DNA of 61,545 bases, counting the filler, from Rhabdomonas costata (taxonomy: Eukaryota), in assembly GCA_019059605.1 (NCBI GenBank). It is 21 parts of 21 records of this genome, joined end to end, with 100 filler letters (N's around TTAATTAATTAA, not from the genome) between each part and the next. Parts side by side here need not be neighbours in the genome. Positions count along the whole stretch, not along the records: positions 11,750 to 14,594 come from JAHMHO010001934.1; 20 more parts are not named here. The stretch is one strand, 5' to 3'. Of the stretch, positions 1 to 58,709 are shown one piece after another. A program made the translations under genes and the position numbers. Numbering within the stretch: the stretch's first letter is position 1; each line of letters starts with the position of its first letter. Below the pieces are notes generated by a model. That model saw only the letters and a list, made by a program, of their open reading frames with translations, ran no database searches and was not told the origin of the DNA.

Positions 1-1965
1 TTTTTTGTGTTGTCACAGATTCGCCAGATTTCAGCCCGCTCGATCCTTTAAGTGAAAGCAGCCCGATCTCTTTCATGAAAGTGCCATTGTGGTTGCGATT
101 TGGGCATTGGCAGAAGCTGCGGAGTTGGGTAAGATTTTCAATCATTGGAGGCTGCACCCAGCTCGACAATTTCAGTGCGACGGACATTGGCTCTTTGGTA
201 ACGCCAATGACACTCTCATACTTCTTCCACGTTGCCAGGGGGATCCGTTCACCTGACCATATTGTTTGCACGCACTGGTGTAGAGCCAAGAACTCTTGGT
301 TAGCACCATCGTCACACCCCAGGAAGAAATCCCTCATCACAGGGGTAGCCATAATTGTGTGCACCAGTGCAGTGAACCCTCCTTCAATGGACGGATGAAG
401 GTGTTGGGGCGTGGCCCAATTTGGTGCTCCTACAGCAGGTCTTCGTCTTTCCTGTGGTTTTGGCACAGGCAACGTGAGCCTCGCCCGGGTGCGTAGAAGC
501 GTCTCCATCAAATCCACTTCCGACGAGCTGAAAATCCAACCTTCACCATCGTCTTCTTCCGGAGACTGAATCTTGGAGTTGAAGACGGTCTCAAAGTAAG
601 GGCGCAAGTCGTTGCGGTTCTGCAGAACAGCCTTTTCCATTCGATGAATGGCACTCGGCAGGCAACTCACAAAGCGGTATGCATTCTGCGCTGGGGGCTC
701 GAGGGAAACAAATTGACTGCACAGTGCTCGCGCCAGATTTAAGCGGTAAGTATGAAAGACCACATTTCCCGGATTGCCGTCTTTTCTCAAACACAGCCTT
801 GAGCTGGAAACAATGCGGTCCCACAGTCGCACTGGATTCAACTTGCTGTGGTTGTTCTTAGTTGGCAGAGCAAGGGTCATTGGATCCCATGATACTGTTC
901 CCTGCGGCCACACCACGCTGAGAAAAGGTATTGCATCTCGATTGTGCTTGCACACACTGCATACTGCGACTTGAAGGACGTTTTCTTGGATCCAGAACCT
1001 TGTTGAAGCGAATCTCCCTGACATGGCCTGTAAAGGAAGTTGCCACCCAGGAAAGAAAGGTCGGGGATTCTGAAGCTGACTTTGACTTGAACGAAGGAAT
1101 TTACCTTCGAAAAAGTCGGACAAGGGGAGGCAATCATGCTCTCCACATACCAGGAGGGACCTACACACGGCACACAGTGTGTCGTAAGGGCGGGACGCTT
1201 CTTCCACAAACTGCTCGGCGGTGATGGGGTTTGGCTCGTGTAGGAAACCGTCACATGGACCAGGAAAATCCATAGGAAGGGATGGAAACGAGGTTTTCCA
1301 CATTTGTCTCAGTGCCGGTGGTAACAGAACCCAGTGGTCCAGTGTATTCTGGTCTTGTAGCTGTTGGCAAAACTTCTGTGGCCATTGAAGCTTCCGCTGC
1401 TGCTCAGCTGTGAGATGATAGTCGGAGTAGTAGTGAAGGGCAAGACATGGAGCGCATAACGAGGCGTCCTCGTGTCTAACCTGAGGGGAAATGTTGGAAA
1501 ATTATGGAAAGGCAATGAAACACATTGTGTGTGACAAAGAAGGAAGATAAACACGATGTGGTAGCAAACCAATTTTCGGTTGAAGCACGTTCCGCGCATG
1601 ATCAGACTCCTGCGCTCTTTCACAGGTAACCCTTCCAGGAACCCTGGATGTTCTGCGACATCAGATGCCGCCACCAAAGATATGCAGGTTCGAGCGCAGC
1701 CCGCGCAGCATGATGGAAAGTTAGTTCGAGTACCCTGATCGGTAGCGTCTTGTTCAGGAGTCGGCTTTCCCACTTGCCCACCTCTAGTCTTGGAACGCCG
1801 TTTCGCAGTCGCGCTGACATTGTTCGTGGAAGGAGCAGATGAAAGTTGTGATCCAGTGAGAGAAGCATTTACGTCATGCTCAGTGAGGAGTGCTTCACCT
1901 GTAGTACTCAACGTACTCCAGGGCACTGAAATAGCATCTTCTTCATGGTCGCTGTCCGTGTACAT
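1..1965 (-). CDS. Large Cys-rich hypothetical protein, 3'-truncated (exons 1965-1570 and 1480-1; GT-AG intron 1569-1481); possibly from a mobile element
   Basis: Manual translation of 1480->1 is stop-free for ~493 codons and runs off the contig, so the ORF track misses it. It joins in frame to the MYTDSD...FNRKL exon through an 89-nt GTTTGC...CCTCAG intron. Contains paired CxxC motifs (CAGC/CAPC, CAVC/CSVC). Confidence 0.7.
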
Positions 1966-9190: not shown

Positions 9191-10690
9191 GGCGCTACGC
9201 CTGGAGCTATGGCTGCACTGGAGGGCTGGGCTGCCTTACGGCCTCCATCCGCCCGGCTGCGCGTTTTCTGCGGCAGCGTGACTCGTTGGTTTTGTGCCTT
9301 CGGTTGTGACCTTCTTCGGCAAGGGGCGCCGAAGGCCTGCCTGCCCAGAGAAATGCGCGCGGTGCTGCAGCATGGGCAGGGCAGGACTGTGAGTAGTAGA
9401 AGCTCCCGCCTTGAGGCGGTGACCGTGAGGAGCAGCAAGACGTTGCAAGGGGTGACCTCGGCGTATGGTACAGTTCTTGTGTGGACTGGCGACAGAAACG
9501 GACGTGATGCTAAGTTACACTACAGTGAGACATGTTTAACTAATGATGTACCCTTTGTTCTTTCTTCTCGCCTGCTTGAGTGAGACGAAAGAGCAAACAC
9601 CGCAGAAAAAGAAGAGAACTTTGACAGGTGCACAACATGCAAAGAGTGAAAAACACTATCCTACCCCACACCGCACCACACCATACCACACAACACTTAT
9701 TACATACAAGGAACAAACAAAAGATCAGTGGTGGCATACCGGCGTGCAGGTGGTCTTTTTCTAACCAAAACCCAAGCCCAAGGTTGTGTAAAGGCAAAAA
9801 AAAAAGGGGGGGGGGCTAAAAGCAACCCGAAATGCCTTTAGGGTGGGGGGAAACACAAGCATTCCGGCCTACTCTGGTGCCAGCATGAAGTACTCTCAGC
9901 CTCTACCCTTAGGTATATACAAAGCAGGCCCGGCCGAAAGCTCAGGGGGCGGAAAGCTTAGGCTCCGTATGCGGCCTGAAAAGGTCCGAAAAGAGCACCA
10001 TGGCCCATGAAAATTTTCGAAGTCAAAAATACCCTTAAAAAAGGCCAAAATGGGGACCTTGAAGGGCCCGGCCCATATCACAGGAGTACTACCATCAGCG
10101 GCCAACCAACCATCTCAGGAATACTACCATCTACCATACGACCAAATATGAACCCGAACCCGTCTAGCTCGAGTTCTGAGGTCAATGTTAGGTCTCCGCT
10201 CCGGTCCGGTCCGGTCCGGGATTAACCATGGCGCAAGTCATCCAGCGAATGGGGTGATATTATGGGGATAAGAGAAAGAACTGTACATCCCGCTTGTGGT
10301 GCAGTTCCCAAAAGGCGAAACCAAACCAGTCATGCGTCTTTTCCATGCAGCAGCCTTCCAAAAGGCTTGCGGTGCAGAGAAGGCTCTTGGCAACTCTCTC
10401 ATCATCAATGGGACAACGAAATTACCAGCACTGTGGTAAGCCCTGGTGCGAGGAGCCACTCGCACCGCAGCCGAAACTGAAGACATTCGGCAGTGCGAGT
10501 GGACTGAGGGTAAATGATTCTGGTGGGAGGGAAGAAAAGCGAAAGCCAGCTCAAGGTAGCGTGGCGGCTTGTGAGCAGAGCAGCATGTAGTTTATCACAT
10601 GCGAAAAGGGATGATGAAGGGGAGAGTAAGGCCTGGAAACAAATGACAGCTGGCAGGGGCAGCCAAGAGCGAAACAGCACACAGACACAC

Positions 10691-11542: not shown

Positions 11543-12103
11543 CTGAGAGGCCGGGGAGGGGTTGGGCGATTAGGCGCAGACAATAGCAGCACAGATACAG
11601 AGAGGAGAGGAGAATACGGGACCACAAAGTGCTGCCCAACAAACCACCCNNNNNNNNNNNNNNNNNNNNNNNNNNNNNNNNNNNNNNNNNNNNTTAATTA
11701 ATTAANNNNNNNNNNNNNNNNNNNNNNNNNNNNNNNNNNNNNNNNNNNNGGGGTTGGGGTACCAAGTTCTCCTGGGGTATACGAGCTCAGGAGAACTTGG
11801 TACACCCCCCAAATGCTGAAAAGGCCGCCGAAGTGCCTCCCCAGCCCCCAGGCCCTTGGAAAGGAGGATAGGTGACCGCCAGAACGAAAAGAGGGAACCC
11901 AAAATAGTCACCCAGCAGGATGCCGACTCTATGCGCCTACTCGCGGTTTCTCCCTCTGTGCATGTCGCCAATTTCCATCTAGCCCGTCGTAGTTTCGACA
12001 CATTTTCACGAACAAAAACATGACCCATCAGCGCAGTTCCCAAGATGTTATAGGGGGCGGGTTGGGGGGTTGTGCTCTCTCTCTCTGTCTCTCTGCGTTT
12101 CAG

Positions 12104-14020
12104 GGCTCACCGTGGCGCATATCGCGCACACCACGAAGGTGGACTGGCTGGAGCTTAACCTCTCCGCCACGAAGCTGCTGTTCCGAGACAAGCACCGCTG
12201 CCTGGTGCTGGTGGACGTCGCCACCAACGAGCGCACCACCCTGCTGAACTACTGCTCCTACGTCCAGGCACCCCCCATATTTAGCTGTCTGCTGCTGCCC
12301 TTGCGCTTCCTTGGAAACACCCGAACTCATTCTCTGGCCACTCAGCGAGAAGGTTTGATTGTCATTCCCTGGGCTATTGTATTCAGCCTGGGTGTGGAGG
12401 GGTATTAACCGTTTAGTGGTGGTCAACACCGCTAAACGGCCAGTATATTTTTGAAACACACACACATACAGGGGTTCCGGCACAGTACACCAGCTCTCTT
12501 GACAGTATTCCGAGGTTTCAGCGCAGTGTATGTAACACCAATGTTATTGTACAGCTTTAAGCGTTCTGTTGTTCAGTTTGTGTGTTCAGTTTGTCACGTT
12601 TCGGTCAAATATCGAACGGTGGTAAACGTTGAAATGGCATCCCCCACTCAAGAAAAACAATCGCCTTCCTCCTCCTCTGCGCCGCCTCCGCCTCGAGGTT
12701 TTCGAAAAAGAAAACTGCTCAGGGCTGCAAGACACCGCAGCAGTTTTAGGGCGACTACGCTTACACACCCACCCAAACAGCCAACCACGCATATGTAGCG
12801 GCGTCGTCTATTATTTTGAAATGGCTTCGTATTGGGTGTTCCGTTTGCCTGTGTTTTTTTTGTTTGTTTGTGGATATGGGGGGGGGGCAGTGGGTGCCGG
12901 AAAGCGACGTGGTAGTGGCGCAGAACCGCGGAGACCTGTGCGTCTGGTACAGCATCGACGCCCCGGACCGCGTGGCGATTGTACCGATTAAGGGTGACGT
13001 CGTGCAAATCGAGCGCGCCGCGGGCCGCACTGAGGTCATCGTGGACGAGGGTATATGCTCGCAGTTGTTCTATATATGTGCACTGCTCGTGTTGCGGGAT
13101 GCGATGGTTGTGATTTGGGGTAATTACCTTTGCCATGACGCGTATCGCCGCAACCCCGCCCTCCCGTGCGAGACTTATTCATGGGATTGCAGACTCGTGT
13201 GAAAACCATCCCAGCTCTTTCCATGACGATCCCCGCCGCCAGTATCAGTGGACAGAAACTTTTGCAAGAGCCCTGTCTGGGAACCGAATCCTCAAACCCT
13301 GACCCCTGCTAACAATGGTATATGAATACACAAGGCTGGCTGAAGCTCGTGAAAACGTTGGTGCAGGGATGTCAACTGCTGTGAGGGATCTCTCACAAGG
13401 TTTGTCACGAGTTGGTGTCTGTGTCTTAGAAGGTAAGTGCTCGACCACATGGGCTGGAAAGCGCCACGCACTCCTTTTGGGTCGGACGGGTACTTTGAAG
13501 GGTGTATCGGTGCATAGTCAGTCAGGGTCCGCGCTGTGCCTTCCAGGGACGAACACCGTGGCCTACGCCCTGGATGAGGCTCTGATTGAGTTCGGGCAAG
13601 CCCTGGAGGCGAAGAACTTGGAGAGGTTTTTGCTTCTTGTTTCCTGAGCCACGGCTGTGTGTCTGTTCCCAACCAGGCACCTGCGGGCCTCCTTGTTTTA
13701 CATTTTGGTGCCTGACTGTATTTGTACCAGTGTTTACCTTCTTACGCCCAGCTCGGGGGTGTATGCGTGTGTGTGTGCGTGTGCGTGTGCGTGTGCGTGT
13801 GCGTGTGCGTGTGCGTGTGCGTGTGCGTGTGTGTTTGTGCAGGGCATGCGCTCTGCTGGACCAGATCGCCCTGACCCCGGAGACGGAGGCGATGTGGCAG
13901 ACCTTGGCCTCCGCCGCGCTGGACTCCGGGTCCTACGCCATTGCGGAGCGGGCGTGCAGCGCGCTGGGCGACGTCGCGACGGGCAACGCCCTGGCAAAGA
14001 TCAACGAGCTCGCGGAGAAG
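12104..14020 (+). CDS. IFT172: Intraflagellar transport protein 172, internal exons 12104-12267, 12891-13050, 13547-13625, 13843-14020
   Basis: Spliced product ...KVDWLELN...KLLFRDK...LLNYCSYVQ/WVPESDVVVAQNR...TEVIVDEG/TNTVAYALDEALIEFG...TPETEAMW...IAERA matches conserved IFT172 motifs. Confidence 0.95.
13765..13832. repeat. (GTGTGC)n microsatellite at the 3' end of IFT172 intron 3
   Basis: Tandem GCGTGT units directly upstream of the TGTGCAG acceptor. Confidence 0.9.
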
Positions 14021-15028
14021 GCACCTCATTTGTCCCCTCCCCACAGGCCTTTCAGTTGGTCCCAAATACACAACCCACTGGGCACTTGTTTTTGTTACGC
14101 CATGCGATGTGACCTTTTTTGGGGTGGGTTGGTCTCAGACCTGCCCCCTTATTAGTATGCCTGATTTTTTTCCCGTTTGTATCTACGCACAAACAAACAC
14201 GCACAGAAATCATCTTTTGGCACGCTGGTGGGGACCGTGCCATTTGTGGCGTGGCATCTAACATAAATTCCACTTGTCGTTTCGCCAGGTAAGCATGACG
14301 AGCCAAAATGGACCCTTCATGCCATAGCATGGCGTAGAGATGCTCCCAGAGACTGGTAATTTGAAGAATTACCATCCCAGCAATTAAACCCCCAACCAGC
14401 CAATCCAGCTGAAGAGATGATACCCGCTCCGGCTCCGGTTAGATTGGGAACTCATTCCGCGAGCAGGGCGAGGGAGATTGTTCTAGATTGTTCTTCAAGG
14501 AAAATTGTTCTACCCCCACCCCCTAACGGTCGATGCAGGTTTGGTAGTCGGCAGAGAAGGTTACATGGGCGCTGCTGGAAGACCCCCCCCCCCCNNNNNN
14601 NNNNNNNNNNNNNNNNNNNNNNNNNNNNNNNNNNNNNNTTAATTAATTAANNNNNNNNNNNNNNNNNNNNNNNNNNNNNNNNNNNNNNNNNNNNACGTCC
14701 CACGAGCACATTCGTGTGCTCTAGGTCGTACCTCCAGCCCTGGCCACATCGAAGACGGCAACCCGGAAGCGGAGGCACCTTCTGTTCTCTGTGTTTTTTA
14801 CCTGGTGCCTCTTGGTTTCAGCTGTTTTTCGCCTGACCGGGTCCAGATCGTTGTTTTCTTTCAATCCAGTGAAAAGCATCCAGCGGTGGGGCAGTAGAGC
14901 GTTTTTCTGTTTAAGAAAAGTCCCTTGAGGGCTTATGAGAGTCGATGTCAGCTGCCTCGGAAGCTTTATGGAGCAAGGGAAAGACTCGTGTGTCCCTCCA
15001 CCTAAATGTTTCCAAAGGAGCCATGCAG

Positions 15029-29452: not shown

Positions 29453-31376
29453 ACGTAATTTGCGGCACACCCGCGACTCCTTCCCACGTGGAGCTAATCC
29501 GTTGCCCGTGGGGGCTGACGGAAGGACAGGCCTGCGTCTTGATGTGCCAGGAAGGCTACCCGGGCTGGGGCAGGCTGACCTGCACCTCCGCGGGGACGTG
29601 GAATATGAGCGGGGGCTGCGAAGGTTTGTTGTAATGGCTCCTGGTCTTTGGCCTTGCTTTCTCTCAATTTCTCCTTCGCTGCACGAAGCTGTGTTTCTTC
29701 ATGAGGTAGCGTGATTGCAGCTTTTTTCCAGGCTTCAGCGAGACAGATTGCCGCAGCCACAAAGGTGTACTTTCGCTTCCTTGGATGTGGATTTGTGTTA
29801 TAACTCTGAGTGTGTGGCCTGCTAACGTTCACCAAGTGCTTGGTAGGCACTGATGCCGATTCATGATTTTGGGTGACCACAGGTTGAAACACGTGCAGCT
29901 TTCCCCGTCCTTTTCTTCCGCCTATACCTGTACTTTGTTTCTTTTTAGCGGTCGACTGCGGCCCTGCCAGCCAGCCCTCGTTCGCCTCCACCACACCCCT
30001 CTGCCCCTCGGGCACGACCTATGGGCAGGCCTGCAGCTTTGGCTGCGCGGCGGGATACCCCGGCGGGGGCAACCTGAGCTGCACCGCGAGCGGGGCGTGG
30101 GCGCAGAGTGGCTGCTGTGCTGAAGGTACGGATGCTTTTCGCCAGCACAGCTATCTTTGGGAGGGAATGGTGAGCTGGTAGGCTGGTTTCCTGAAGGAAG
30201 GCGGTTCTCTGGTGCCCTGCTGACTTCGCCCTCTGCTTGTGCTCATGCATCGCCACCTTGGTGTCGTTCTCCCGGGTTTCATGGTACTCTTCGTGTGCTT
30301 TGGGTGCATAAATGTATTATCGCTCAGGCTCAGCTTCTGATAAGAAATTGCGGTTGTTTCAAGGCAGTGGGCCGGAACCCTTGTCCTTAACCCCTGTGAT
30401 GTGCTTTCCTACAATGCCACAAGTGGTATGTTTTTTTGCGTTTGAGGTAGCTCTTTTCCTGTTCTGATTTCTCAAGGGGTTTGTGGGACCGACGTGGAGT
30501 GCCCCCCGGGCTTCGGCACTTTGAGCCCAGAGACGGCCTGCTGCTCGACGAACTGTACCCTGATGGAGTGCTGCCAACGTATCTGCCTCGCTGTCTCCGC
30601 GCTGTCTTTTTGGGGGGTGGCATCCCGTTTGGGTCTTTCAGAGTGTTGTGCGCTTCTGAGGTACGACGTTGATAAGCTGAGGGTTGTAGACTCCCCGGGA
30701 TTTGCACGCCTTTACTTTTTATAGATTGCCTTTCAACCTGTCCCAGGGGTCAGCATCCATCCATTGGGCACACACCACTCACCCAGTTTGTCATTGTTGG
30801 TTGATTAAGCGTCGGAGCAGCGGTGGAGATGCCCACCGCTTTAGCAGCTAACATTCACAAGGGCTTCCCTCACTTCGGGAAGTTGAGAATGCTCCAAAGC
30901 GGAGCCTTTGTTCGTACGTTCGGTTCGTTAAGTGTGGTGACGGACTTTTTGTGCAGCAGTGCTGTGATGGGTCTACAAAACGCTGTGGTACATGCCTTGG
31001 AATTACTGCGCCTATACAGAGTGTGCAGTTTGTTGCGTGGGAGTGTTTTGAGTTGCGTGTCGGGTGTATGGCTGGTTGGGCATTAGCGCTGTACTTCTGG
31101 GCCACCGTGGAACCTACTTCGACTCCGGAGGGGGCGTACACCCGAACGGACCACTGCACAATGACCTTCGGGGATGTCCTGCTGGTGGTCGCGGGGTACG
31201 ACCCGTACAACAACCCCCTCAACGATGTGCTGTGGAGCAGGGACGGGCTGTCGTGGACCCAGAGCACTACCCAGGCTTTTCCCTCGAGACGGAGCGGAGT
31301 AGGCTGCGGGGTGCTGGGGTCCCGTGCGTTTGTCATGGGAGGCTTCGACGACGCCAACCGCACATATCTTGGCGAG
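29453..31376 (+). CDS. Extracellular mosaic protein: two sushi/CCP-like modules, a Cys-rich module and kelch repeats; exons 29453-29623, 29949-30125, 30477-30578, 31087-31376
   Basis: Exons read VICGTP...GQACVLMCQEGY...LTCTSAGTW...C and VDCGP...TTYGQACSFGCAAGY...LSCTASGAW (sushi pattern), then VVAGY...NDVLWSRDGLSW...R...VMGG (kelch). The three junctions are phase-1 GT-AG and in frame. Confidence 0.8.
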
Positions 31377-38425: not shown

Positions 38426-40231
38426 CCGGGTGGTCCCCGGTGACCATCATGACGCGGATGCTGGCCTGGCGGCACTCTGCAATGGCCTGGGGCACGGTGG
38501 GCCGGGGCGGGTCCAGCACTGCCACCAGTCCCAGGAAGGTCATCTCCTCCGTGGGGAAGTTCAGCTCCGTGGCGTTGTACGGCGGCGGGAACTGCGCAAC
38601 GCTCAGCGTGCGGTGGCAGATGCCAATGCAGCGCTCGCCCATTCCACCGAGGAACTCCACTCGCTGCACAGAAAGAGAAGGAAAGGGAGAAAGTTCCACT
38701 TCGAATCTAACAGCTGGACAGATTCTTTTTTTAGCCCACTCGCTAGTCAGCCCACCTGTTCAGGTCGCACGTCCAACCCCTTGCGTTTGTCCATTAGTCT
38801 ACAGTGTGCATAGTCTAGGGTGGCAGAAGTGAAGATCCCCAATGGCCTCGTGTACATCTTCAGCATCGAAATTACATTCTCCAGACTGCCAGGTGGACAA
38901 GGCGCTGCGAGCTACGGGGGAGGGGGCACGACTGGAGAAGGAGATAGTTGCGACACGGATAACGATGCAGATGCATCCTACTCAGGAGAGAAGTCAGTTC
39001 GGAGGAGGCAACGACAGCGCACAACAACATCGCAGAAAAAACCCGAAAAGTTCAACCTCGGCAATCGCGGCCTGCAGCTCCGGGGTCAGCGGGAGGGTCC
39101 CGCCGTCCTCCATTCGGATGGCGCTGCACCGCTGCAGCATGTACTCCGGGGCCCCTTTCAGTACCACCAGCCTCTCCGCGGGGTTGCCCCCCTCCACGGC
39201 ATGCACTGTGGCCATGAACTTCACCCGTGAGTTGAAGGGCACCGTGAGCTCCGTGCGGTGCCACTCCCGGATGTGCCGCACGTCCAGAAGCTTTCCCGCG
39301 AACACCATCAGGGCCCGGTCCACAGGATTCAGGGCACGCCCCCGCTTCTTTCCACCGTCCTCAGGGGAGGCATTGTCCGGGCTGTCGTCCTCAAGATGCT
39401 CCGGGGCCACCGTGTTGCAAAGCACCCCCGCCCGGAGCAAGGGGAACGCGATGCACTCCCCCTCCCGGTCCACCTCCAGGATCGACGGGAACTCCGAGGG
39501 GTTGGTGAAGCTCAGCATCCGCCCCCCAATCACGAGGTGCCGCACGACCATGCAGTTCGTGGTGAGAGTGCCCGTCTTGTCGGAGGCGATGGTGGAGACG
39601 CTTCCCAGGGTCTCGACAGTGCCCAGGCGAGTCACCATTACTCGGGACCTCCGCACGAGCTGCTTCGCGATGATCGTCAGCCCGATCGTCACACACACGG
39701 GGAGCCCCTCCGGGACAAAGGACACGGCCAGGCCGATGAGGGTGGTGATGAATCCAGAGATGTTCATGTATGTAGGATGCTGGGTTTGTAGGAAGGCGAT
39801 CCACCCGATGAAGATCGTCAGCCCGGCAGCTGCGGCTAGGCACACGAAGATGATGACGATCCGGCGGACCTCCAGCTCGATGGTGGTTGGCATGGAACTG
39901 ACCGAGGTCTGCTGGAACACCTTCGCCATCACCGTCTTCGTGCCCACTGCGGAGACGACCCCCACGGCCGAGCCCTCCACCACGTTGGTGCCAAACCAAA
40001 CCATGTTGGTGGCCTCCAGGATGTTCTCCTGGGTGGTCTCCACGGTGCAGTGCACGGGCTCGTTCTCCCCGGTTAGGCCGGAGTTGTCCACCAGGAGGCC
40101 GTTGACTTCGACCAGCCTTAGGTCGGCGGGCACGAGCTCTCCAGAGCGGAGCAGCACGACATCGCCCACGGTGAGCTCCTTCGAGTCCACAACCTCCTCG
40201 CGGCCATCTCTGTGCACCACGGGATTGTCAA
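38426..40231 (-). CDS. P-type ATPase, type IIC-like (Na+/K+ or H+/K+ alpha subunit), partial; exons ~40231-39057 and 38663-38426
   Basis: Motifs VDNSGLTGE, FVPEGL, VETLGS...SDKTGTLT (phosphorylation site), PFNS, KGAPE, LGGMGER, DPPR, MVTGDHP. VPEGL, LGGxGER and TGDHP are P2C-like. Confidence 0.92.
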
Positions 40232-47828: not shown

Positions 47829-49816
47829 TACCTGGTTGATCCTACCAGCGAACGTATGCTTCTCTCAAGGGCTAAGCCATGCACGCGTGAGAGCAAGTTG
47901 CGTGCCTTTGCCAAACCTGTCTGCGAATGGCTCATTGGACCAGCGATAATCTCAGCAGAGAGTGGATCCTTCTCGTGAGCGGGGAGTTCGTGCCTTGCCT
48001 GGACTTCCAGACCGTCGGAGTTCTGTCTCTGCGGGGGAAGGGAGGAAGGCCTTACTCCGAGGCCGGTTCGGCATACCCTCTCTTTCTGAAACAGTTGGCT
48101 AATACATGTGCGAGGGCACTCCTGTCCATTCCCTCGGGAATGGGACGGGATGCACTGGGCTGACCCAAAGAGGGAACTTTGCCGCCCCGGCGGGGGCAAT
48201 TTTCCTGGGGTGGAACCAAGCCTTCTGTGGAAGACCGAGGGGGTGGGTGCTGCTCTGGGTGTCTCACCCAGGGTGGCACCGCCCACGAGAACGGATTCTG
48301 CTGCGTATGGTGCGCTAGTGGCGGCCCTGCGAAGCCCCACTACTCTGCTTGAGTTTCTGCCCTATCAGCCTGCACGGTGGTCCAGGGGACCACGGCGGCG
48401 ATGACGGGTAACGCGGAATTAGGGTTCGATTCCGGAGAGGGAGCCTGAAATACGGCTACTACGACCAAGGTTGGCAGCAGGCGCGCAAATTGCTCAATAT
48501 CGATGTGCATTGGTGAAGCAGCGACGAGGAGTGGTACCTTTTATCGATCACTTGATCGGTACTGGTGGAATGAATGACGACCCAAGGAATGCAGTGAGCA
48601 TCCACTTGTGGGCCAGTCTGGTGCCAGCAGCCGCGGTAATTCCAGCACAAGTGGCCTACTTTGACGTTGTTGCCGTTAAAAAGCTCGTAGTTGGTTGGCA
48701 TCCGAGAGAGCCCCGGAAGCTCCCCAGGCCCTGTTTGGGCGTGGTGCGGGCGGAAACGGGCGATCTTGCGGTGCCCTGCTCAACTCGGGCTGCTCTCGAC
48801 CTCTGCCCCTTCCATCAGGGACATCGGCTCTGCTGTTCCCTCGGGGACAGTCCGGAGGCGGGCAGACGAGGGTGGTTGGGTCTGAGCTTCTCAGTGGGAA
48901 CGATTTTCCGATGATGGGAGACGGGCCAGGCCCTCACCGCGCAGCTCTTCTGTTGCGAGGTGCTCCGGACCGCCGCCTCTCGCAAACCGCAACGCGGTTA
49001 TTTGGCCTACATCCTGAAGCAAGGCACTGCAGAATGGCCCGATGCACCCCTTCTGGCACCGGGCCCCCCCTCGGGGGGGACCGTACCCGGGGTGCAAAAA
49101 GCCAAGGAAACGCCCTCTGGTTTTGTACCATGAGCAAAGCTAAGCGCTCCAAGCAAGTTGTCCTTCCTACCGATCGGATGTTCAAGCGTGGCATAACAAG
49201 GGACCGGTCCGAATGGACCCGATGTTCTGGCATTCTTTACTGGCCCGCTTTGGACGAACTTCGCTTCCCTTGGACCATCTCGGATGACCCCCCCAGATCT
49301 GGGCCGGTGCCCTGCTGAAGTCCCCGGGACCGGGGTTGAACTCTGGTCCCTCTTCGGCAGGCCCATCCCTCTGGGGGAATCAGGCGCCGCCCTGGGCCAG
49401 GGAACGGAGGTGTTGACCGAGGTCGTTTCTGTGCTCAGGGGACTGGGCGGCGAGCGGTGAAACGCTTTGACCCGTCTCAGGACCACCAAAGGCGAAAGCA
49501 CTGAGCAGGACTCGACCTGCCAATCAAGAGCGAGTGTGCGGTGATCGAAGAGGATCAGATACCCTCGTAGTCCGCGCTGTAAACCGTGCCTACCGAGGAT
49601 GCGGGCTGCGTTCCTTCGGAATGTCAGCCCGTGTCTTTCCCCCGCAACGAGAAATCCAAGTGTATGGGTTCAGGGGGGAGTACGGTTGCAAGACTGAAAC
49701 TTAAAGGAATTGACGGAATGGCACCACAAGGCGTGGAGTTTGCGGCTTAATTTGACTCAACACGGGGAACGTTACCTGGATAGCACGTGGAAAGGATATG
49801 ACAGGCTGAAGCACTC
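47829..49816 (+). rRNA. 18S: 18S (SSU) rRNA, 5' portion, euglenid-type, truncated by the contig end
   Basis: Universal blocks TACCTGGTTGATCCT, GTGCCAGCAGCCGCGGTAATTCC and AAACTTAAAGGAATTGACGG. Euglenid-like GGGCTAAGCCATGCAC, CCCGCAACGAGAAATCC and GACGGAATGGCACCACAAGGCGTGGAG. Confidence 0.97.
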
Positions 49817-52800: not shown

Positions 52801-54292
52801 TAANNNNNNNNNNNNNNNNNNNNNNNNNNNNNNNNNNNNNNNNNNNNGGTTTTTTTTGGGGAACAATTGGATTCGCCGCGAGGTCCGGCGGGAGAAGAGA
52901 AAGCATACATACACCGACCAATGGTGACGAATCAAATATAATGTAAACATGCGAATTTTTCCGCATAGTCACTCCACTTCGCTTTGTGCCCCGGGAGCGT
53001 GAATAGCGTCAACAACGGTGCCAATGTGTATATGCATGATGTGGTGCCGTGCACCGCGTTTTGAGGCGCAATGAAATGGAGCAAATTGAGGATCGGAAGC
53101 ACAGAAAATGCAGTCAATGCAGTCATCTCCGAACTGATTTGGCAAGCCAGGCGTTCCCAATCGCCAACTGCCGCAAAAACCGCAGAAAAAGCACAACGGT
53201 ACCAGCACCCAGCACACTTGCGCAGCAGAGTGCACAGGACATTGCCCCAACCAATGTTCCGGAGTTGAAGCGTGGACGCCCCAGATGTGCGCGCACGCTC
53301 CCAAATCATACCCAATCAGGAAGAAATAGTCTACAGCCCCCACCCTCCACAGTACCCGATCCGACTGTGATTCCGATAGCACTTCGAGGCATCCTGAGGG
53401 ATAACACGCTGCAGGTGTGCCTGGCAGCACCTCGCCCTACTTTTGTGGCAAAGAAGTGTTCCGGTGTCCAAACCTCATTGCCGGGGGCCTAGACAGCAAA
53501 AACCGCCCGCCGTACCTGCGCAAAATCCAAAAACGCAGCAAACTCGACGGCAATGGTTGGACTCAGCAGCTTTAGGTGCGCGACTACAAAGCAGCTCTGG
53601 GCATAAATTCGATACCATCCAAAGCACAACTGAGGCAAACGTCCACGGTGTAAGTCCGGCGCAGACAACACCCGCACAGGAAGAACGAGAGTACCCCAGT
53701 AGCGCAATTGTTGGGGAGGCATAATGGGGAGGCATACATCAGACGACTAAGGGCTTCTGATCTCAATCAGGCATCAGTAGCGTCCGGCATTATCAATGCT
53801 GCAAGGGACTGTGCACTTCCTGCCCATCGGTGTGGCGTAATTCGGCAGAAAACTTGAGGGGCTAAGGGGGAATACTAACAAGCTTAGTCGCGCGTAATCA
53901 CCCCCCCCCCCGGGCAACTTCTCAGCTCAGCCCTCCGGCGCGGCAGTGGTCCCGTCAAAGCAAAGCAGCAGCAACACAAATCATCATCATCGTCACCCAG
54001 ATTTGCGATTATGCGATATACTTGCAATCAGTGTTTTCGTTATGGACCCAAAGCGCAAACATGTGCATATAAATTAGATGCGACACAACAGAGCTGGTGA
54101 GGTGACGAAGAAAGTAAAAGAGGGGAACCACAACGAAAACGCAAAGGAAGAAAAAGAAACTACCCCGAAGGAGCCATAAATCACCCACAACTCGTACACA
54201 AGCTGGGCGCACAGGTTTTAGTCACTTCAAAGGAACAAGCATGGACACCCAGACACAGGCAAGTGATCTCATCACAAATGCACACACGAACC

Positions 54293-55531
54293 ACTTCCGG
54301 TACTGCTGGATGTGCGCTGTGGTCCTGGCCAGAGCCTCGGAGTAGGAGTACAGTGGGCGGTACCCCAGCTCCTTAGTCGCGCGGCCCGTGTGGAACCAGA
54401 AGTTGAAGGACACCACCTGACAGGACACCCGGTTGAAGCTGCAGTGGATGCTCACCAGGGGCTTCAGCAGCCACAACAGCACTTCCGTGAATAAGGCGGA
54501 CCACCAACCTGTGGTACAACAATTCAGCGAGACGCTGCCTTTCAGTGGTAACTAATGCTGTTGACTCAACCTGTGGTTGAGTGGGTGAATCAACGTCCTG
54601 AAGCGGCTTGCCGAACTCTTCGACGGCCCTCATGCCGCCCTGCTGGCGCTGCGGGGTTTGCTCTTATCTGACAGCATGTGTCATGCAAAGGGAGGAGTGG
54701 TGGAAGGCAGGAATGCATTCCCCATAAAAGCAAATGCAAACACTGGCAATTTAGTGGAAAGCAGCGGAGTCGCGGAATGATGGAAGGAAAGAAGGAAGGC
54801 GAACGCAGCTGCCGAGCAAAAACCAATCCAGACGCGTCAACCTAGTGCGTAGGGGAGCCACCAGGTCATCATGCTACACCCCGCGGCGGCCAACAAGGGT
54901 TCAAAGGTGTCGGAGTAGTTCCGCACTGGAGTGTCGTCGCCAGGGATGTAGATCCGACCCCCGATCCTGGGGCCGGCGCCCTGCAACAGGAGCTGGTCTG
55001 CGGTGACAATGTGGGCCCAGGCCACGTTGCGGACGTACCCGCTCTGGCTCAGCGCTTTGCGGTTCCCAAAGCGAGGAACAACCCCCATCATTGCGGAGCC
55101 GATAAGATTGGGAAGCTGCACACATGCAATGCAGCGACACGGTCACTCCACCACCACATCACTTGAAGATCTCCGCAATTTGATCTTGGTTGAAAGCATG
55201 AGCAAAGAGCAGAGAGAGCGACCAAACAGTAATGAATTGCCTGGGGCAGCAGTTGCGAACGCAAGCTAGAAAAAGTCAGCTTTGGTTCAGAAAGTTAGGT
55301 CACTTGACGACACTTACCTGCCACGGGTCATTCTCACCGTACATGGCAAGAGCGCGCAGCACCACAGTGGTGAGCCCGCCCACGCCATTCGCGGCCAGCA
55401 CGCTCTGCTCGGCGACGGCCTTGGTTTGGGCGTATGTGCCGTACAGGAAGGGCTTTCCCAGGGCGAAGGGGTAGGGATCGGTCTCCGACCCACCGGTCGT
55501 CCCTTCAATGGGGACCGCCACGGAAAGCGTG
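54293..55531 (-). CDS. 3-beta-hydroxysteroid dehydrogenase / extended SDR (NSDHL/SDR42E-like), partial; exons 55531-55318, 55115-54842, 54508-~54293
   Basis: YAQTKAVAEQSVLAANG (YxxxK), LRALAMYGEND, YVRNVAWAH, GDDTP and AxKELGYRP motifs; GT-AG junctions are phase-consistent. Confidence 0.9.
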
Positions 55532-56836: not shown

Positions 56837-58709
56837 GGTGGGCAAGGTGGATGGGAGGGGGTGTGGGCGAGTGCCCTCCCATAACAAGAGGTGCGTCATT
56901 TGTGGACCGATGGAAACCTAGCCTTTGCTTAACCCTCCACCATAACTCGAACCCTACACTAACGTTAACCGGAACTCCGGCACCAAAGACAACCCAAAAC
57001 CAAACAAAACCACAACCGCTGCATGGAAACGCATTGACCTCAACGACAAAATTCTGAACAATACGTAGAATTGCCCCTGCCTCAACCGACAGTCGGCTCC
57101 AACTACATCTTCTTTGCAGGGGTTAACTCCAGTTCTTTTTTCATAGGTTTCTTCTTTTTCATAGATTTTTGGGAACCCCCCCCCCCTGTTTATTTTCGCC
57201 GTTCTCCCTCGATCCCTCCCGCAAACCACGGACGTCGGTAACGAGGTGACACGGGGGCTTCTGTGGAGATTTTGGGGACGAGCCCGAAGCAATGATGTAG
57301 TATGGTTCTCTTCTGCATGGCAAGGGAAAGTGAAACAGTTTCCGTACTCTCGCTTTCCTTCAGCGCAGTAAGTGAAAACATATCCCCAAAATGAAAACTT
57401 TTTTCGAGGAACCGATGGAGAAGAAGGCCTCAGCAAATTGCGGGAGACATAGCACCAGGTGCAGTTGTTCGATGGCATACAGTTTTCCACGACAAGGAAA
57501 GGAAAGAGGGGGCAGCGTCATCGCACCACCAGCCCATCGCCGTTTAGTCTCATACTGGGTTGAGTTCCTGAGTCCATTCCGAAACGTAAACCGGCATACT
57601 CGAGAGAGATGTCACCGCCCTGTTCCCTCTCTCTATCTGCAGGCCGATGTGGAGCCCTGGAAGGCGCTCATCCAGGTGTGTTCCCTCCTCTCTCAGACCT
57701 GGAGGGGGAAGCACTCCCCCTTCCCATCCCCCATATGCAGCATTGCCATATATATGGTCATTCCTCCAGGATTTTTTAACCCTGTGTAGTGGAAAGCTGA
57801 AGCTTGCCGAATTCGGCTGAAATGGATTGAATGAAAACGATGAGGCTGTTGTATGGGGGGGGGTCCATACAATTGTTGAACGGTTCCCTTCCCCCAATAA
57901 AAACATGAGTGTCCCAAATCGATTAAAATGATATGCACAGAGCAAGGGGGGGCTTTGGCTTAAATGCTCCGTGCTAATGGGAAGGAACCGGAAACCCGGT
58001 ACTACCAGTAAGTCGGAAGGGGTCCGAACGTGTTTCGTTTTCCGGTTGTATTTTGTGTGCGGGTGGGGGTGGGGTCTCAGCCCATGTCCCCGCCGGCGCC
58101 GCAGCCGCTGTCGCAGCTTCCCATGGACCCCCGGTCCCGTTCCCCAGCAAGGAGCCCCGCTCCCAGCGTGCGCACGGCTGATCCCACCGGAGCAGTGGAC
58201 GGCATGCCCCCATCTCCCTCGTCACAATCGCTCTCCCACATATGTTGTTGTTGGTGATGCAGTCAGGCAGGCTTTGGGATCATAATTCCCGCCTGAAGAT
58301 GAGGAAGGCAGACCCCGTGGACACCCCGTGGACACGTGAGCATTCGCAGACGCACACATACACCAGCCAAATGTCGCGTCATGCTCCACGCCCTGCTCCT
58401 GTCATCTGCTCTTTCGGTTTTTCCACGGCTACGTTCACAGTTTCCCACTGACTCGGATTTTTCGCGTTTTGTGTCAATTTTTCAATCTCCGGAATGCCAA
58501 AAAAAAGATACGGTTTTTACAAAAAAATTTATGAATGTACACGAATTTTTACAGACCAAATTTAGGGGCATTTTAGGGCATTGTGTGGAGATCCCTGCTC
58601 ACACCACCCNNNNNNNNNNNNNNNNNNNNNNNNNNNNNNNNNNNNNNNNNNNNTTAATTAATTAANNNNNNNNNNNNNNNNNNNNNNNNNNNNNNNNNNN
58701 NNNNNNNNN

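Follow-up and report, generated by a model that had tools for sequence, protein, structure and literature searches.

Which machinery removes an intron that looks conventional at its borders and nonconventional in the way its ends pair? To our knowledge, only in euglenids do spliceosomal introns occur in bulk alongside structure-defined nonconventional ones. Introns that fit both descriptions are natural test objects for the way in which one of these types turns into the other; we know of only a handful of them, all described from Euglena. The intron studied here interrupts the IFT172 gene of Rhabdomonas costata. It is located in one contig (11750-14594) of a window of 61,545 bases, which comprises 21 contigs of ~2.8 kb each in falling length order, separated by N44-TTAATTAATTAA-N44 spacers; adjacent blocks are not genomic neighbours. 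All counts and comparisons given below derive from this window, from homologues and from the literature. Judged from its sequence, the feature is a true intron, and the IFT172 gene that carries it belongs to a euglenid-like euglenozoan and looks functional. We estimate a probability of roughly 55% that the U2-type spliceosome would excise it as a GC-AG intron of the category called 'conventional/intermediate', whereby the effect of its end pairing is uncertain. It adds an example to an already described 'intermediate' kind; a new class is not supported.

The position of the intron within the coding sequence was evaluated by homology. The exon before it (12106-12267) aligns to residues 482-534 of Chlamydomonas IFT172 (PDB 8bd7_S) and the exon behind it (12891-13049) to residues 535-587 of the same protein, with residues 534 and 535 joining without gap or overlap. 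Two further IFT172 exons follow at ~13547-13625 and 13843-14023. The four joined exons (193 aa) are collinear with the protein of an Euglena gracilis IFT172 transcript (P0003; 71% identity, 194 columns). When 82 homologues and the window sequence were aligned (83 rows), the V, Q, W, V and P around the junction were free of gaps; V is conserved in 82/83 rows, Q in 77/83 and WVP in 83/83. Because of the collinear homology and the gap-free alignment the mRNA junction is fixed as CAG/TGG (YVQ/WVP; here and below the slash marks a border) and is secure by homology. These alignments bear out the junction CAG/GCACCC...GGGCAG/TGG, which the initial annotation had placed at the conserved SYVQ/WVP. The IFT172 exons have ~95% G+C at third codon positions (GC3) and are free of stops, and the gene therefore looks functional. 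The organism's own IFT172 protein was not among the best 120 of 246 matches to exon 2, the top match (91%) being the E. gracilis transcript.

The borders at DNA level are less definite than the mRNA. Since CAG stands at both borders, four registers of the intron (CA..GG, AG..GC, GG..CA and GC..AG) lead to identical mRNA. Only GC..AG is canonical, that is, the combination of GT or GC at the 5' end with AG at the 3' end, as in U2-type introns, is found in one register. The exon before the intron ends with CAG and so does the intron itself. The designation 'GC-AG intron' is thus correct in that a GC...AG reading is available for a real IFT172 intron, but it names one of four equivalent registers.

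Conventional splice signals were then inspected in the GC...AG register. The donor shows no complementarity to U1 as expected from the E. gracilis consensus GTGTG, which may not be that of the host: positions +3..+6 read ACCC, without a G at +5. This test is weak, as the host's U1 may differ and its remaining donors are variable at +3..+6. At the 3' end, the best 20-nt pyrimidine window (16/20) ends 19 nt before the splice site, and no other AG occurs within 90 nt ahead of the terminal one. The terminal AG is therefore the first one behind a pyrimidine tract, which is set apart from the acceptor by a purine block of 16 nt. The ten Gs described before the acceptor CAG are indeed present (Table 1). 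That they stand 'instead of' a pyrimidine tract holds insofar as no tract adjoins the acceptor; a tract does however exist further upstream, so that the G-run is an insert and not a substitute. No branch motif of the type YTRAY was found within the last 100 nt of the intron. Such motifs are also rare in diplonemid introns (PMC12621601).

Seven other complete introns of the window were used for comparison. Three of them are fixed by homology (IFT172 introns I3 and I4 and the intron of a Na/K-type P-type ATPase gene). The other four, two in a gene of the 3-beta-hydroxysteroid dehydrogenase family and two in a Cys-rich/Kelch gene, were derived from GC3-rich open reading frames, Pfam matches, splice motifs and frame. 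Left out were the gaps between exons 3 and 4 of gene E and exons 1 and 2 of a lipase gene, with 141 and 132 frame-compatible site pairs, respectively, as well as IFT172 intron 1, of which only the acceptor lies in the contig, and the intron after 14023, the donor of which is unfixed by homology. The comparison introns consistently are of the GT-AG type, follow an exon-final G and have a YAG acceptor (7/7 in each case); exon-final CAG is found at 2/7 donors. From these ordinary signals it follows that ordinary spliceosomal splicing runs in the organism. Moreover, the donors are weakly conserved beyond GT, and GCACCC therefore falls little short of the neighbouring donors, except for its C at +2. 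In six of the seven the 20 nt richest in pyrimidines end at most 6 nt from the acceptor; in the remaining one, the gene E intron 29624-29948, the distance is 29 nt and the last bases are themselves T-rich. As to the genes concerned, in the ATPase gene (38427-40205, minus strand) a GT-AG intron of 393 nt (38664-39056) separates an exon of 380 codons from a second one; the gene resembles animal Na,K-ATPase alpha chains (E 4e-55). The gene of the 3-beta-hydroxysteroid dehydrogenase/isomerase family (54285-55491, minus strand) has at least three exons with GT-AG introns, including one perfect CAG/GTAAGT donor.

The studied intron departs from this set by the complementarity of its ends. CCCCCCATAT at 12271-12280 (intron +4..+13) is matched by its exact reverse complement at 12874-12883, both being the sole exact copies in the window. 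The 10-nt exact inverted repeat and its extension to a stem of 13 bp with two G-U pairs (12271-12283/12871-12883) were found as initially described. For the duplex between the first and the last 20 nt an energy of -23.9 kcal/mol is predicted. A wider duplex including the exon ends reaches -35.4 kcal/mol, and a chimeric 10+U7+10 fold of the intron ends -19.0 kcal/mol. For the end duplexes of the seven comparison introns, all GT-AG, values of only -0.9 to -7.4 kcal/mol were obtained, and strong end pairing was found in none of them. Hence, among the eight defined introns, all with canonical ends and 202-623 nt long, the studied one is the outlier.

As a null, random pseudo-introns of 150-1000 nt were drawn from the same contigs and therefore carry the same composition and homopolymer excess. 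Watson-Crick stems of at least 10 pairs within the first and last 20 nt occur in 8/39,499 pseudo-introns, and stems of at least 13 pairs including G-U in 19/39,499. A duplex energy of -23.9 kcal/mol or lower was reached by 10/7,906. For the exon-inclusive windows the null amounts to -16.0 +/- 6.1 kcal/mol versus the observed -35.4 kcal/mol, with 23/6,000 at least as strong. The ends of the intron are thus strongly complementary, as claimed by 'base-paired ends', and this is rare among matched pseudo-introns. The end pairing is real, and it would be rare in an intron specified beforehand, but here it concerns a single case (n=1) chosen post hoc, and one example cannot establish a function of the pairing.

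The folding of the intron was evaluated with and without exon flanks. The whole intron folds similarly to shuffled sequences (z -1.57; 2/20 shuffles at least as stable). In the excised intron the 13-bp stem is predicted with a pair probability of ~0.45-0.5, in competition with slipped C6/G10 registers. After adding 10-60 nt of exon its probability is ~0 and other pairings take over. The first of these, helix A, shows probabilities of 0.94-1.0 in its core (12267-12273/12892-12898) and of 0.53-0.99 in its outer part (12263-12265/12899-12901) when exon flanks are present. In helix B the pairs 12295-12300/12885-12890 have probabilities of 0.94-0.99, and the G-U pair 12301/12884 of 0.71-0.74. The core of helix A reflects an exact match: GGCACCC across the 5' splice site (12267-12273) is the reverse complement of GGGTGCC, bases 2-8 of exon 2 (12892-12898), which codes within the conserved WVP. 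Altogether several mutually exclusive pairings are possible between the C-rich 5' end, with CTGCCC at +28 as well as C6, and the G-rich 3' end, with GGGTGCC of exon 2 as well as G10, and each alternative is predicted to put the two splice sites within few nt of each other. Of the proposed terminal structure, the joining of the ends is thus recovered in all folds, but the particular 13-bp stem is lost with exon flanks.

How this relates to published introns was assessed on the basis of the available parts of the reports cited. A close precedent is intron 5 of the E. gracilis tubA gene, which was classed as 'conventional/intermediate' (Canaday et al. 2001, as cited in PMC3935182) and later judged probably nonconventional (Milanowski et al. 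2014, PMC3935182). According to the latter report it has CAG direct repeats at both junctions, four possible positions of which the fourth is GC-AG, a stable structure joining its ends and no typical 3' polypyrimidine tract. The studied intron resembles it in all these points, and likewise stands at a position not common to conventional introns of other species. It differs insofar as a one-base upstream shift of tubA intron 5 gives CA/TG at the nonconventional positions and matches a nonconventional intron of E. quartana, whereas no register of the studied intron fits. Moreover, the latter pairs a C-run with a G-run, has a displaced T-rich tract and no orthologous intron at hand. The definition of 'conventional/intermediate' introns in the same source, i.e. 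canonical borders at any position combined with a stable end-joining structure, describes the studied intron (PMC3935182).

A GC-AG intron with an end structure of the nonconventional type was also reported in 2016 (PMC4770533). It has five plainly nonconventional homologues, and its authors infer that two removal mechanisms and a conversion between intron types are possible. GC-AG ends and the type of end structure are shared by the studied intron, which, unlike the published one with its five homologues and typical nonconventional features, is without known homologues and without a CAG/CTG-type motif. The same study describes pairing of +4..+6 with -8..-6 in nonconventional introns, whereby the complementarity and not the sequence is conserved; CAG/CTG is found in 33/55 (PMC4770533). 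The usual CAG/CTG pairing is truly lacking here, with CCC at +4..+6 and GGG at -8..-6. Since complementarity, not these letters, is conserved according to that text, the lack alone does not define a new class. The suggestion of a 'distinct class' is unsupported in view of the tubA precedent and of CAG/CTG being present in just 33/55 nonconventional introns. One more such intron, in a distant euglenid and with a paired sequence of its own, would show that the 'intermediate' state is not peculiar to Euglena, and that end pairing rather than the letters CAG/CTG is the shared feature. As it stands, this single case with a close published precedent would add a candidate, not a principle.

Among E. 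gracilis introns, 659 GC-AG face 11,527 GT-AG introns, and the donors of the former stand out at a single position, with G at +5 (PMC11170887). The studied intron resembles U2-type GC-AG introns by its GC donor after an exon-final AG, the terminal CAG, the upstream pyrimidine tract and the AG-free zone. It deviates from them by the missing G at +5, the 16-nt purine block between tract and acceptor and the exceptional complementarity of its ends. In the available text of PMC11170887, end pairing is compared for GT-AG and nonconventional introns, not for GC-AG introns. No report on end pairing of euglenid GC-AG introns was found in the literature at title and abstract level, and a comparison of GC-AG with GT-AG introns as classes may still be undone. 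Hemistasiid diplonemids have ~97% noncanonical introns, which are short (medians 37-91 nt) and have G/C-rich, base-paired ends (Thakur et al. 2025, PMC12621601). G/C-rich termini and a high pairing probability between the ends are common to both, whereas in the studied DNA 8/8 defined introns have canonical ends and lengths of 202-623 nt; its IFT172 gene, moreover, groups with euglenids and not with diplonemids.

For the removal as a spliceosomal GC-AG intron we propose the following course. The exon would end in CAG with GC serving as donor, and the branch point would be located upstream of the T-rich tract. The tract at -52..-20 would precede the choice of the acceptor, which would be the first AG downstream of it, after the AG-free zone of 90 nt. 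The odds are about even between a helpful contribution of the end pairing to the weak donor and a pairing that is neutral or needs unwinding. Spliceosomal removal, the position of the branch point and any role of the helix are what we infer, not what is shown. Several findings weigh against the spliceosomal reading. The donor has C at +4..+6, where E. gracilis GC-AG donors have G at +5, and the 16 nt before the terminal CAG are purines versus pyrimidine-rich last 20 nt in the other seven acceptors. In the predicted fold of the pre-mRNA both splice sites are sequestered in helices, the 5' one by pairing with exon 2 and the 3' one in a helix of its own, which would hinder rather than help U1 and U2AF. 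The helix of the studied intron starts at exactly +4 with its partner at -8, a geometry of the nonconventional type; a start at +4 with the partner at -6..-8 and at least six Watson-Crick pairs occurs in only 208/199,783 pseudo-introns. Finally, homology fixes no more than three of the seven comparison introns.

The complementarity could possibly be a by-product of poly-C and poly-G tracts together with our post-hoc choice. The intron would then be a conventional GC-AG intron whose helix has no role, so that this explanation overlaps with spliceosomal removal as preferred here; we give it a sizeable though minor share. The window contains seven runs of at least 10 nt (4 G and 3 C) in 61.5 kb, far above the expectation based on composition. 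The failure of the whole intron to fold better than shuffles (z -1.57; 2/20) and the disappearance of the 13-bp stem from the ensemble with exon flanks point in the same direction. At 2e-4 to 4e-3 per intron, moreover, tens of thousands of introns would give many chance cases, and this case came from a scan for oddities. On the other hand, the intron is an outlier even against a null that already contains the homopolymer excess, and the match includes the non-homopolymeric ATAT(TTA). C6/G10, GGCACCC/GGGTGCC and CTGCCC/GGGCAG independently join the same two ends, and none of the seven other introns comes near (-0.9 to -7.4 versus -23.9 kcal/mol).

The main rival to spliceosomal removal, though in our view unlikely, is a nonconventional intron of the euglenid type, with borders set by the terminal helix and a CAG repeat that incidentally permits GC-AG; it would be removed by an unknown non-spliceosomal route or by both routes. 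For Euglena the code of such introns was defined experimentally as 5'-N3-CDG...CH'G-N5-6/R, the 3 nt of the 5' spacer being a strict requirement (Nomura et al. 2025, PMC12501133). The studied intron resembles them by the 3-nt 5' spacer followed by a strong helix from +4, by extended pairing, by a purine at +1 and by slidable borders, which are found in 84% of the introns of E. agilis (PMC12501133). The perfect 10-bp helix uses +4/-8 and the minimum free energy structure +4/-5; a slip of C6 on G10 could let +4..+6 pair with -6..-8 as the model requires, and other pairings win once exon flanks are included. Also in keeping with this explanation are the weak donor, the purine block and the lack of a pyrimidine tract adjoining the 3' end. 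The near-identical tubA intron 5 was judged probably nonconventional (PMC3935182). The fold of -19.0 kcal/mol lies even beyond the -10 to -2 typical of the end folds of nonconventional E. gracilis introns (PMC11170887).

The letters of the code do not agree. Instead of CDG the positions +4..+6 hold CCC in the GC-AG register and GCA, CAC and ACC in the other three, and instead of CH'G the positions -8..-6 hold GGG in all four. In the GC-AG register T is the first base of the downstream exon; a purine (A or G) comes first in two registers, both without the helix at +4. The code thus fails at +5, +6, -8, -7 and the first base of the next exon. As the code comes from work on Euglena, to which the host is only distantly related, this failure is not decisive. 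Furthermore, the code is absent from 38.8% of nonconventional introns in E. agilis (PMC12501133), and CAG/CTG is absent in 22/55 (PMC4770533). The 3' spacer measures 7 nt in the perfect register, and two additional nt strongly reduced splicing in Euglena (PMC12501133). The borders of nonconventional introns are non-canonical, whereas a canonical GC-AG register exists here. An AG 3' end is rare in that type, a pyrimidine being preferred (PMC3935182). The T-rich tract with the 90-nt AG-free zone and the seven other sampled introns, all conventional, also speak for the spliceosome.

We regard it as improbable that the clamp of C-run and G-run replaces CAG/CTG as a structural signal in a divergent, probably heterotrophic euglenid lineage, which would make the intron a living intermediate with spliceosome or nonconventional machinery removing it at the same sites. 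If true, this would be a lineage-specific variant of the nonconventional code and would document intron-type conversion outside Euglena.

Similarly improbable is an origin from a small transposon with terminal inverted repeats and a CAG target-site duplication, the helix being its relic. This concerns the origin only and is compatible with the other explanations. The inverted repeats of 10-13 nt and the flanking 3-nt direct repeat would fit, and such an origin has been proposed for nonconventional introns (PMC11170887). However, the ordinary splice consensus by itself already leads to CAG repeated at the two borders. A blastn search of the intron against the window revealed no second copy, only the self-match and matches of at most 35 nt, many of low complexity; 61 kb give little power for such a search. 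The motif of the intron ends, allowing one mismatch, matches seven times in the window (3.1 expected; 2/100 shuffles reach 7). A similar-looking pair at 57727/57851 was rejected as it lies inside an intron with a GT start at 57676 and not at its ends. An embedded RNA gene was not found in the intron either: there was no Rfam match at the gathering threshold or E<=1 and no tRNA.

A metagenome scan with exon 2 yielded five loci of 66-78% identity. None of the five has an intron at the studied site, as would suit an insertion, and none is close enough to compare intron ends. Four of the five are uninterrupted at YVQ/WVP and may be transcript-derived. The locus of 78% identity (L002) contains two short GT-AG introns, one ~10 nt upstream of the studied site (L002:367-460), the other few codons upstream of the I3 site (L002:610-670). 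Another IFT172 fragment (L003:660-910) has in-frame stops at conserved positions, which suggests a variant genetic code or sequence errors.

A true donor at the GT of 12262, six bases upstream, would give a GT-AG intron in frame with the acceptor 12890 (TAC/GTCCAG) and a protein without VQ; it was rejected as very improbable, given that both columns are gap-free in the 83 aligned IFT172 sequences (V 82/83, Q 77/83) and that the exon would end with TAC while 7/7 other donors follow G.

The affinity of the host was addressed with a FastTree phylogeny of 51 IFT172 fragments. The window sequence falls inside the Euglenozoa clade (support 98) and groups, with a long branch and weak support (88), with E. 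gracilis and not with diplonemids. The host had been called a 'divergent euglenid', which seems reasonable from the placement in Euglenozoa and the weak grouping with Euglena, but is not proven. A spliced-leader motif taken from the R. costata paper has one match in the window, with no GT after it; as 24/100 shuffles also match, this is uninformative. A partial eukaryotic small subunit ribosomal RNA gene is located at 47832-49673 (plus strand; 438.5 bits), whereby model positions 4-1116 are spread over 1,842 nt. It represents a strongly expanded, divergent 18S, as is expected for a euglenid.

Table 1. Features of the IFT172 contig in window coordinates. Intron positions refer to the GC...AG register.
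Feature	Position	Strand	Remarks
Pyrimidine tract, then acceptor cag (12101-12103)	directly 5' of exon 12104-12267	+	
IFT172 exon	12104-12267	+	approximately residues 481-534 of Chlamydomonas IFT172, ends ...SYVQ; GC3 0.95
Alternative helix A, 5' side	12263-12273	+	end of exon 1 and intron +1..+6; predicted partner 12892-12901 (exon 2 +2..+11)
CAG, 5' copy of 3-nt direct repeat	12265-12267	+	3' copy 12888-12890; makes borders slidable
Studied intron, 623 nt, GC...AG register	12268-12890	+	starts at 12265, 12266 and 12267 give the same mRNA
5' arm of terminal inverted repeat (C6 + ATAT + TTA)	12271-12283	+	intron +4..+16
Alternative helix B, 5' side	12295-12301	+	intron +28..+34; predicted partner is the last 7 intron nt, 12884-12890
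T-rich pyrimidine tract, 79% pyrimidine	12839-12871	+	displaced to intron -52..-20
3' arm of terminal inverted repeat	12871-12883	+	intron -20..-8; 10 Watson-Crick pairs, then two G-U and one A-U
G10 run	12878-12887	+	directly before terminal CAG
IFT172 exon, starts WVPESD	12891-13050	+	residues 535-587 of Chlamydomonas IFT172
IFT172 intron I3 (next after the studied one), GT-AG	13051-13546	+	pyrimidine tract adjoins acceptor; without end pairing
IFT172 intron I4, GT-AG	13626-13842	+	TGCGTG-type microsatellite; without end pairing

Some further observations were made in the window. Behind the fourth IFT172 exon (14021-14035) AAG is followed by GCACCTC, which resembles the CAG/GCACCC donor; with its junction unfixed by homology this is a candidate second GC donor only. 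The TGCGTG/TG microsatellite of intron I4 (13760-13835) occupies most of the 3' half and stands directly before the acceptor. An open frame of 500 codons at 2-1501 (minus strand) continues beyond the end of its contig. It lacks both a Pfam match and the high GC3 seen elsewhere in the genes of the window, and may belong to a mobile element or be foreign. The start of the IFT172 contig (11756-11806) forms a hairpin with 19-nt arms, 95% complementary, and a 13-nt loop. Such a palindrome at a contig end could have arisen artificially during amplification or assembly. The homopolymers of 10-12 nt comprise G runs at 9806, 12878, 16938 and 50560 and C runs at 14583, 53901 and 57176. They may be real or result from amplification or sequencing; the C run 14583-14594 ends a contig.

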